In this document: positions 55,774-55,907 of the stretch, piece by piece
How positions within the stretch are numbered: the first letter of the stretch is position 1
How the letters are laid out: the number at the start of each line of letters is the position of its first letter
Assembly: GCF_003334335.1 (NCBI RefSeq)
Contig: NZ_QOWQ01000026.1
Strand: one strand, 5' to 3'
DNA length: 64,000 bases
DNA from: Escherichia coli
GTDB taxonomy: Bacteria; Pseudomonadota; Gammaproteobacteria; Enterobacterales; Enterobacteriaceae
Program-made: the position numbers and the translations under genes
The notes under the pieces: generated by a model
Told to the model about the DNA's origin: nothing
The model's database searches: none
What the model saw: the letters and a program-made list of their open reading frames with translations, nothing else

Positions 55774-55907
55774 TGTCGGATGCGGCGCGAGCGCCTTATC
55801 CGACCTACGGTTCGCTATCTCTGGCTGGCCTGATAAGACGCGAACAGTGTCGCATCAGACACACTGCCAGTGTCGGATGCGGCGCGAGCGACCAATCCGA
55901 CTTACGG
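55774..55907. repeat. Two REP elements (BIME-like) between znuB and ruvB
   Basis: tgtcggatgcggcgcgagcgccttatccgacctacgg (55774-55810) and tgtcggatgcggcgcgagcgaccaatccgacttacgg (55871-55907); the second overlaps the ruvB stop codon. Confidence 0.8.

Follow-up and report, generated by a model that had tools for sequence, protein, structure and literature searches.

Background

REPs are palindromic, non-autonomous repeats linked to the RAYT or TnpA_REP transposase. A conserved GTAG tetranucleotide lying 5' of the foot of the palindrome is needed for TnpA_REP binding and cleavage (PMC3333891). The same paper describes the BIME-2 class as made up of z2 and y REPs with a short S linker, arranged in tandem units whose number varies among strains. 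REP325 has six repeats, each of two units (PMC4550694). Two insertion sequences, IS1397 and IS621, are REP specialists (PMC1525189).

Here we describe the spacer between znuB and ruvB in a stretch of 64,000 nucleotides of DNA (the window), which is E. coli chromosome and carries the K-12 gene order in this region: pykA, lpxM, mepM, znuA, znuC, znuB, ruvB, ruvA. A literature search returned no functional data on the REP array of this spacer, and neither ruvB nor znuB gave a match in the text-form supplementary tables among PMC3333891, PMC12306157 and PMC6061677. We consider it probable, at roughly 85%, that the spacer (55756-55901) is filled by a BIME-2-type cluster consisting of a y REP, an inverted z2 REP and a second y REP, and that this cluster is orthologous to the one found in K-12. 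As in BIME-2, the array contains both y and z2 REPs in alternating orientation.

Results and discussion

REP composition of the znuB-ruvB spacer

The two genes are convergent and are separated by 146 bp; the znuB stop codon is a TAA at 55753-55755, and the first REP palindrome begins 19 nt downstream of it (coordinates of the features are collected in Table 1). A repeat search of the window recovered the outer elements of the array as direct repeats of 37 nt that are identical at 33 of 37 positions (89%) and lie 97 nt apart, each containing an imperfect palindrome. A 19-mer common to both, GTCGGATGCGGCGCGAGCG, occurs exactly twice in the 64-kb window, against an expectation of zero from 100 shuffles. 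These are the two same-orientation REP copies that an earlier note on this DNA had reported, and both are genuine y-type elements; its description of them as a tandem pair, however, misses the inverted z2 REP that lies between them. Because the array alternates in orientation as y, z2, y, its arrangement is that of a BIME rather than of a same-orientation tandem.

Table 1. Coordinates of the genes, REPs and linkers discussed in the text, in window positions
Feature	Position	Strand	Remarks
yebE-yebF REP, z2-type	41479-41514	+	CCTAC intact
yebE-yebF REP, degenerate y-type	~41535-41562		
pykA REP, single y-type	50655-50688	+	palindrome 50655-50684; CTAC 50685-50688
znuB CDS	54970-55755	+	ORF call; annotated znuB in matching genomes
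REP-1, y-type	55774-55810	-	palindrome 55775-55804; CTAC 55805-55808, equal to GTAG on the minus strand
Linker, 15 nt (GGTTCGCTATCTCTG)	55809-55823	.	joins the GTAG-proximal ends of REP-1 and the z2 REP
Middle REP, z2-type, opposite in orientation to the y copies	55824-55860	+	palindrome 55828-55860 (GCCTGATAAGACGCGAACAGTGTCGCATCAGAC)
Short linker, 11 nt (ACACTGCCAGT)	55861-55871	.	joins the GTAG-distal ends of the z2 REP and REP-3
REP-3, degenerate y-type	55871-55907	-	palindrome 55872-55901; overlaps the ruvB stop and last codon
ruvB CDS	55902-56912	-	ORF call and annotations in matching genomes

The earlier note had identified the outer copies as REPs. The sequences of the array do match the REP consensus families, the outer copies that of y and the middle copy that of z2, and all three palindromes have matching y and z2 REPs at other places in the same genome. 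Against the 36-nt y consensus (GCCGGATGCGGCGTGAACGCCTTATCCGGCCTAC...) as quoted in PMC12306157, REP-1 has 5 mismatches in 36 and REP-3 has 9, and the best match in 50 shuffled windows had at least 12; REP-1 also lies within 2 mismatches of the gapped y consensus, for which zero matches are expected by chance. The middle REP agrees with the z2 consensus at 30 of 33 positions with one gap. REP-1 is predicted to fold at -19.2 kcal/mol (plus strand) and -18.8 kcal/mol (minus strand); the corresponding predictions are -13.3 and -14.4 kcal/mol for the z2 REP and -14 to -15 kcal/mol for REP-3. A query made of the spacer itself found a median of three matching places per E. coli genome.

A reading of the palindromes as products of chance, or as ordinary intrinsic terminators and not REPs, has in our judgement a negligible probability. 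Its appeal is that the elements are GC-rich hairpins sited at gene ends; against it, no U-tract follows the znuB-ruvB hairpins, the matches to the REP consensus, which in themselves refute it, have a chance expectation of zero and the same sequence families recur at other loci within the window.

Among the three REPs of the array in the window, only REP-1 retains an intact GTAG box. The box of the z2 REP is degenerate (GCTG at 55824-55827), with K-12 and O157 having GTAG at the equivalent position, and that of REP-3 reads GTAA (TTAC on the plus strand, 55902-55905). In other Escherichia, GTAG is found at all three positions.

Two plus-strand open reading frames, at 55773-56408 and 55847-56317, run antisense through ruvB; we dismissed both as mechanical artefacts.

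Comparison with BIME-2, BIME-1 and REP325

The linkers bear out the likeness to BIME-2: the 11-nt linker on the GTAG-distal side is S-like and short, the linker on the GTAG-proximal side is here 15 nt, and there is no long L linker. In an alignment to the naRNA4 model, the 11-nt linker ACACTGCCAGT resembles the S linker of REP325 (AACGGTGCCGACT), and each repeat unit of the longer alleles known from other strains again has the 15-nt linker GGTTCGCTATCTCTG. Other strains of E. coli have amplified a unit of about 97 bp at this locus, reaching 2.5 or 3.5 units, and the copies at znuB-ruvB resemble one another, as in BIME-2. The resemblance has its limits, as the window allele comprises only 1.5 units, so that on its own it lacks the typical tandem multiplicity, and two of its three REPs are without a GTAG box. 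Moreover, the y copies in the window are of the GTCGGAT...ATCCGAC variant and not of the GCCGGAT...ATCCGGC form, and y/z hybrids (GTAGGCCGGATAAGACGCG...GCATCAGG) occur among the internal units of the 340-bp allele.

We also considered BIME-1, in which y and z1 REPs are combined with a long L linker carrying an IHF site and which is present in single copy. This assignment was ruled out by the middle REP, which is the long z2 form with a GACGC...GCGTC core, by the 11- and 15-nt linkers and by the amplification of the unit in other strains.

The array shares with the REP325/naRNA4 unit the order y, short linker, z2; unlike REP325, it holds only 1.5 units. The Rfam naRNA4 model (RF02564, 77 nt) aligns over its full length with 55827-55902 (minus strand), scoring 48.4 bits, and a second sub-threshold match covers 55733-55805, also on the minus strand, at 37.5 bits. 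In the Rfam scan of the window at gathering threshold naRNA4 was absent, the threshold being 59.5 bits against a best score of 48.4, and we therefore take the match as a resemblance and not as family membership. The two minus-strand matches could still be read to mean that the array encodes a REP-derived sRNA like naRNA4 of REP325, acting in nucleoid organisation. We judge this very improbable and have rejected an naRNA4-like sRNA gene as a candidate: the matches remain below the gathering score and follow from shared REP sequence, no promoter-like site was found in or near the spacer, and the six repeats given for REP325 (PMC4550694) compare with 1.5 units at znuB-ruvB.

Copy-number variation among E. 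coli strains

The same 146-bp spacer with the same three REPs is present in K-12 MG1655, where it spans K-12 coordinates 1,944,200-1,944,345. In O157:H7 the spacer is 245 bp long and contains five REPs, and in E. coli B and Ec-042 it is 340 bp long and contains seven; the increments correspond to one or two units of about 97 bp, each a y and z2 pair. The strain variability of REP copy number that the earlier note had expected is thus found at this locus, where alleles with 3, 5 and 7 REPs have spacers of 146, 245 and 340 bp.

To place these alleles in a wider sample, we searched 5,426 complete E. coli genomes with a flank-only query made of 200 nt of each gene; as the query contains no repeat sequence, the spacer lengths are free of repeat bias. 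The znuB and ruvB flanks lie no more than 700 bp apart in 4,790 of these genomes and farther apart in 636. Length classes were taken from an evenly spaced sample of 60 genomes, among which 43 have a spacer of 144-151 bp with three REPs, five have 245 bp with five REPs and two have 340 bp with seven REPs. Three further genomes have a 216-bp spacer, consisting of three REPs and an IS621 remnant, and in the remaining seven the spacer is split by a larger insert.

Insertion sequences in the array

The suggestion that the array is a target of insertion sequences is borne out by the complete genomes: IS1397 was found in the array in 556 and IS621 in 71 of the 5,426, and the two between them explain 627 of the 636 cases in which more than 700 bp separate the ends of znuB and ruvB. 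IS1397, of the IS3 family, occupies the z2 REP's loop and is accompanied by a 3-bp duplication, and the junction is the same in all 556 genomes. IS621, of the IS110 family, is bridge-RNA guided. In its 71 genomes it is inserted at GGTAG/.../GCCTGATAAG, a position corresponding to the CT core of ATCAGGCCTAC in the tail of the z2 REP. The site at znuB-ruvB, ATCAGGC/CT/AC, is exactly the published natural target (PMC11208160). For both elements, then, the sites hit here, the REP loop for IS1397 and the CT core of ATCAGGCCTAC for IS621, are their known target sites. The window itself contains neither an IS1397 nor any other IS, and its z2 REP does not have the CT core used by IS621, because the z2 target is mutated (ATCAGGCCAGC).

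Some alleles have a 70-bp insert in REP-1, at the position equivalent to that following 55806 in the window. It is present in 697 of the 5,426 complete genomes, including the type strain ATCC 11775. The insert consists of the first ~59 nt of the left end of IS621, and this part ends exactly where intact IS621 has GTATCGGGCCT, containing ATCGGGCCT; the latter is the specificity for which IS621's target-binding loop codes (PMC11208160). Past the IS621 part, the insert runs on as REP sequence, (G/T)TATCCGACCT ACGG. Judged from these junctions, the insert looks like a solo-left-end scar, which would have arisen by recombination of an internal IS621 segment with a REP target. The other genomic matches to a query with the 70-bp insert are the left ends of full-length IS621 copies.

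Distribution of the array in Enterobacteriaceae

Directly after the ruvB stop codon, the order y, z2, y is found in E. coli, E. albertii, E. whittamii and two further Escherichia isolates, and every Escherichia species and clade that we retrieved carries the array. Among the 23 spacers listed out of 80 Enterobacteriaceae loci, no y-z2-y array was seen in Salmonella, Citrobacter, Enterobacter, Klebsiella or other genera; those listed have REPs of different types, set back from the ruvB stop, or no REP.

Some spacers outside Escherichia have features of their own. Pseudenterobacter timonensis has a 108-bp unit in three tandem copies, in which the final 46 nt of ruvB are combined with a REP and a linker, so that in this species REP-associated tandem amplification copied part of the coding end of ruvB. 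The ruvB-znuB spacer extends over 713-1129 bp in three non-Escherichia genomes, and two other-genus spacers, of 305-318 bp, share a non-REP insert.

REP-3 and the ruvB stop codon

The earlier note had the second copy overlapping the last codons of ruvB. The overlap is real and amounts to 6 nt, since TAA occupies 55902-55904 and CCG (Pro) 55905-55907, that is, the stop and the last codon; it involves only the GTAG-box region, however, and the palindrome lies outside the gene. The REP-3 palindrome starts at the first base after the ruvB stop, and the palindromes of the array are wholly intergenic.

We asked where this stop codon came from by a pattern scan of species-representative genomes with a RuvB C-terminal coding pattern, which yielded the 80 Enterobacteriaceae loci mentioned above. 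The C-terminus of RuvB reads ...ITPPxMP* at the same position in 77 of the 80, that is, in all but three, and the stop is variously TAA, TAG or TGA; the ruvB-znuB spacers are mostly 28-148 bp long. Because the position of the C-terminus is the same in all but three of the 80 loci, we regard the stop as ancestral and not supplied by the REP. That a REP created the stop or the C-terminus of ruvB is ruled out, the stop position being the same also in loci that have spacers of 28-60 bp without the array. At one non-Escherichia locus, RuvB ends in ...DMPGSS*.

Among the spacers listed, only those of Escherichia have a REP whose GTAG box coincides with the end of ruvB, "ccG TAG/TAA". In E. albertii and in E. 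coli GPEC1337 the junction reads CCG TAG/GTCGGATAAGGCG, which is a canonical GTAG followed by a REP in which the TAG is at the same time the ruvB stop codon.

Within Escherichia the ruvB stop is polymorphic, being either TAG or TAA. The TAG stop accompanies an intact REP in GPEC1337 and E. albertii and decayed copies in E. whittamii and E1V33, and all the TAA alleles that we saw accompany a weakened or decayed REP.

Several Escherichia lineages show independent decay of the ruvB-proximal REP, with REP-1 and the z2 REP being well preserved. The predicted energy of the hairpin just after the ruvB stop ranges from -23.4 to -2.7 kcal/mol across the genus: the intact forms have -23.4 and -19.1 kcal/mol, most E. 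coli have about -15 kcal/mol, and values elsewhere are -11, -8, -6, -4 and -3 kcal/mol. This independent decay argues against strong selection for the hairpin, or for selection against it.

Two conjectures can be attached to this junction, namely that the ruvB-proximal REP is a tunable brake on RuvB translation, and that REPs insert 3' of a pre-existing GTAG-like tetranucleotide; we hold both with little confidence and consider them doubtful. In the first, the strength of the hairpin may have been reset repeatedly in Escherichia, from -23 kcal/mol with the TAG stop to about -3 kcal/mol. In the second, the coincidence of the GTAG box with the ancestral "ccG TAR" end of ruvB may hint that REPs insert 3' of an existing GTAG-like site. 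A parallel is offered by the IS200/IS605 elements, which insert 3' of TTAC.

Possible functions of the array

No hairpin followed by a U-tract was found on either strand of the spacer (55756-55901), and the single terminator match in the interval 55500-56200 is weak, lies inside znuB and occurs at chance frequency. A bidirectional intrinsic terminator was rejected as a candidate on the ground that the hairpins are without U-tracts. As there is no intrinsic terminator in the spacer, both convergent operons would have to end by Rho or by read-through. The spacer also contains no promoter-like site. Folding of the whole spacer gave z-scores of -4.2 and -4.3 on the two strands.

REPs are described as protecting the 3' ends of Rho-dependent transcripts (PMC6061677). 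At znuB-ruvB the REP hairpins would be the only stable structures on hand to define or protect the 3' ends of the znuCB and ruvAB mRNAs, and, by analogy with the published cases, they probably define and protect these ends after Rho-dependent or read-through termination.

REPs lying less than 16 nt from a stop codon are reported to stall terminating ribosomes and to down-regulate translation, the marks of this class being stalling, cleavage of the mRNA and tmRNA tagging of the product of the upstream gene (Liang, Rudd and Deutscher 2015, Mol Cell 58:431, as cited in PMC12306157). Stop codon and REP hairpin are 0 nt apart at ruvB, 7 nt at pykA and 19 nt at znuB, which places ruvB and pykA, but not znuB, within that range. 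The hairpin of REP-3, as the first structure past the ruvB UAA, would stall terminating ribosomes, and we suggest, again from analogy, that it probably lowers RuvB translation somewhat. What ruvB and pykA share with the stop-proximal REPs of Liang and colleagues is the position, and most E. coli lineages have a weakened hairpin at REP-3.

A role at the level of DNA has also to be weighed. Cleavage by gyrase is over-represented within BIME-2, for the most part at y REPs, and does not depend on transcription, but only a subset of BIME-2 elements is cleaved, and the znuB-ruvB locus is not named there (PMC6379681). Being a BIME-2 between convergent genes, the array may, by analogy, bind DNA gyrase. 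A stronger proposal is that its main function would be that of a strong gyrase site which relieves positive supercoiling between the convergent znuCB and ruvAB operons. The y and z2 composition is that of BIME-2, in which gyrase cleavage is enriched (PMC6379681), and the flanking genes are indeed convergent; set against this are the restriction of cleavage to a subset of elements in which znuB-ruvB is unnamed (PMC6379681) and a window allele of just 1.5 units. We consider this proposal unlikely.

The array could instead be a selfish or neutral leftover of RAYT-mediated spread and replication slippage in a non-essential spacer, its contact with the ruvB stop being incidental. We rate this as rather unlikely. 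In its favour are the independent decay of the ruvB-proximal REP in several lineages, the loss of GTAG from two of the three REPs in the window, the toleration of IS insertions of 1.3-1.4 kb in ~12% of genomes and, in the other genera listed, the existence of 28-60 bp spacers without the array. The retention of the array at this site across the whole genus Escherichia speaks for the other side, as do the good conservation of REP-1 and the z2 REP, the lack of any other terminator-like structure in the spacer and the general support in the literature for effects of REPs on RNA (PMC6061677 and PMC12306157). A selfish or neutral origin is moreover compatible with the REP identity of the sequences and contests only their function. 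The identification of the spacer as a BIME-2-type cluster orthologous to that of K-12 is the same under either account.

The REP after pykA and other elements in the window

The earlier note was right to place a further REP after pykA. This single y-type REP has 2 mismatches to the y consensus and begins 7 nt past the pykA TAA (50645-50647); its predicted hairpin has an energy of -24.5 kcal/mol (z = -6). A hairpin with a T-run follows at ~50748-50780, between this REP and the end of lpxM. The flank-only approach gave a pykA-lpxM spacer (50648-50777 in the window) of 130-131 bp in 36 of 36 sampled genomes, and this constancy means that there is no length variation indicating a change in REP copy number. 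In 498 of the 5,426 complete E. coli genomes (~9%) the ends of pykA and lpxM are separated.

In strain 16F5M1D1 the 130-bp pykA-lpxM spacer and its REP are replaced by a sugar-utilisation island of ~19.5 kb. This island, which the window does not contain, encodes a GH13 glycosidase and an alpha-mannosidase, along with a sugar ABC transporter and a regulator of the TrmB family.

Between yebE and yebF (41479-41562) the window has another REP pair, in which a z2-type and a degenerate y-type element lie ~20 nt apart. Rfam matches above the gathering score comprise an antisense pair of overlapping sRNAs, SraC/RyeA on the plus strand and SdsR/RyeB on the minus strand, at 34656-34800, and a 5' UTR of the cspA-thermoregulator type at 18708-19168, upstream of a cold-shock-family gene adjoining yobF.

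Conclusions

The REP array between znuB and ruvB is an ordinary element of an already described kind, and the same element is present in K-12 at the same place. The amplification of its unit, its targeting by IS1397 and IS621 and its proximity to a stop codon are all published properties of REPs and BIMEs. As a textbook REP/BIME cluster it adds little of value for annotation; it does provide a worked example, at one locus, of unit expansion and contraction, of repeated hits by REP-specific insertion sequences and of a GTAG box that shares bases with a stop codon.

If REPs do insert 3' of GTAG-like tetranucleotides that were already present, a stop codon with a G before it would offer them a natural landing site. 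If the ruvB-proximal REP does act as a translational brake, the dosage of RuvB would be set partly by REP decay; and if the stop-adjacent hairpin modulates RuvB, its decay in particular lineages would lead to natural variation in the dosage of a recombination-repair protein.
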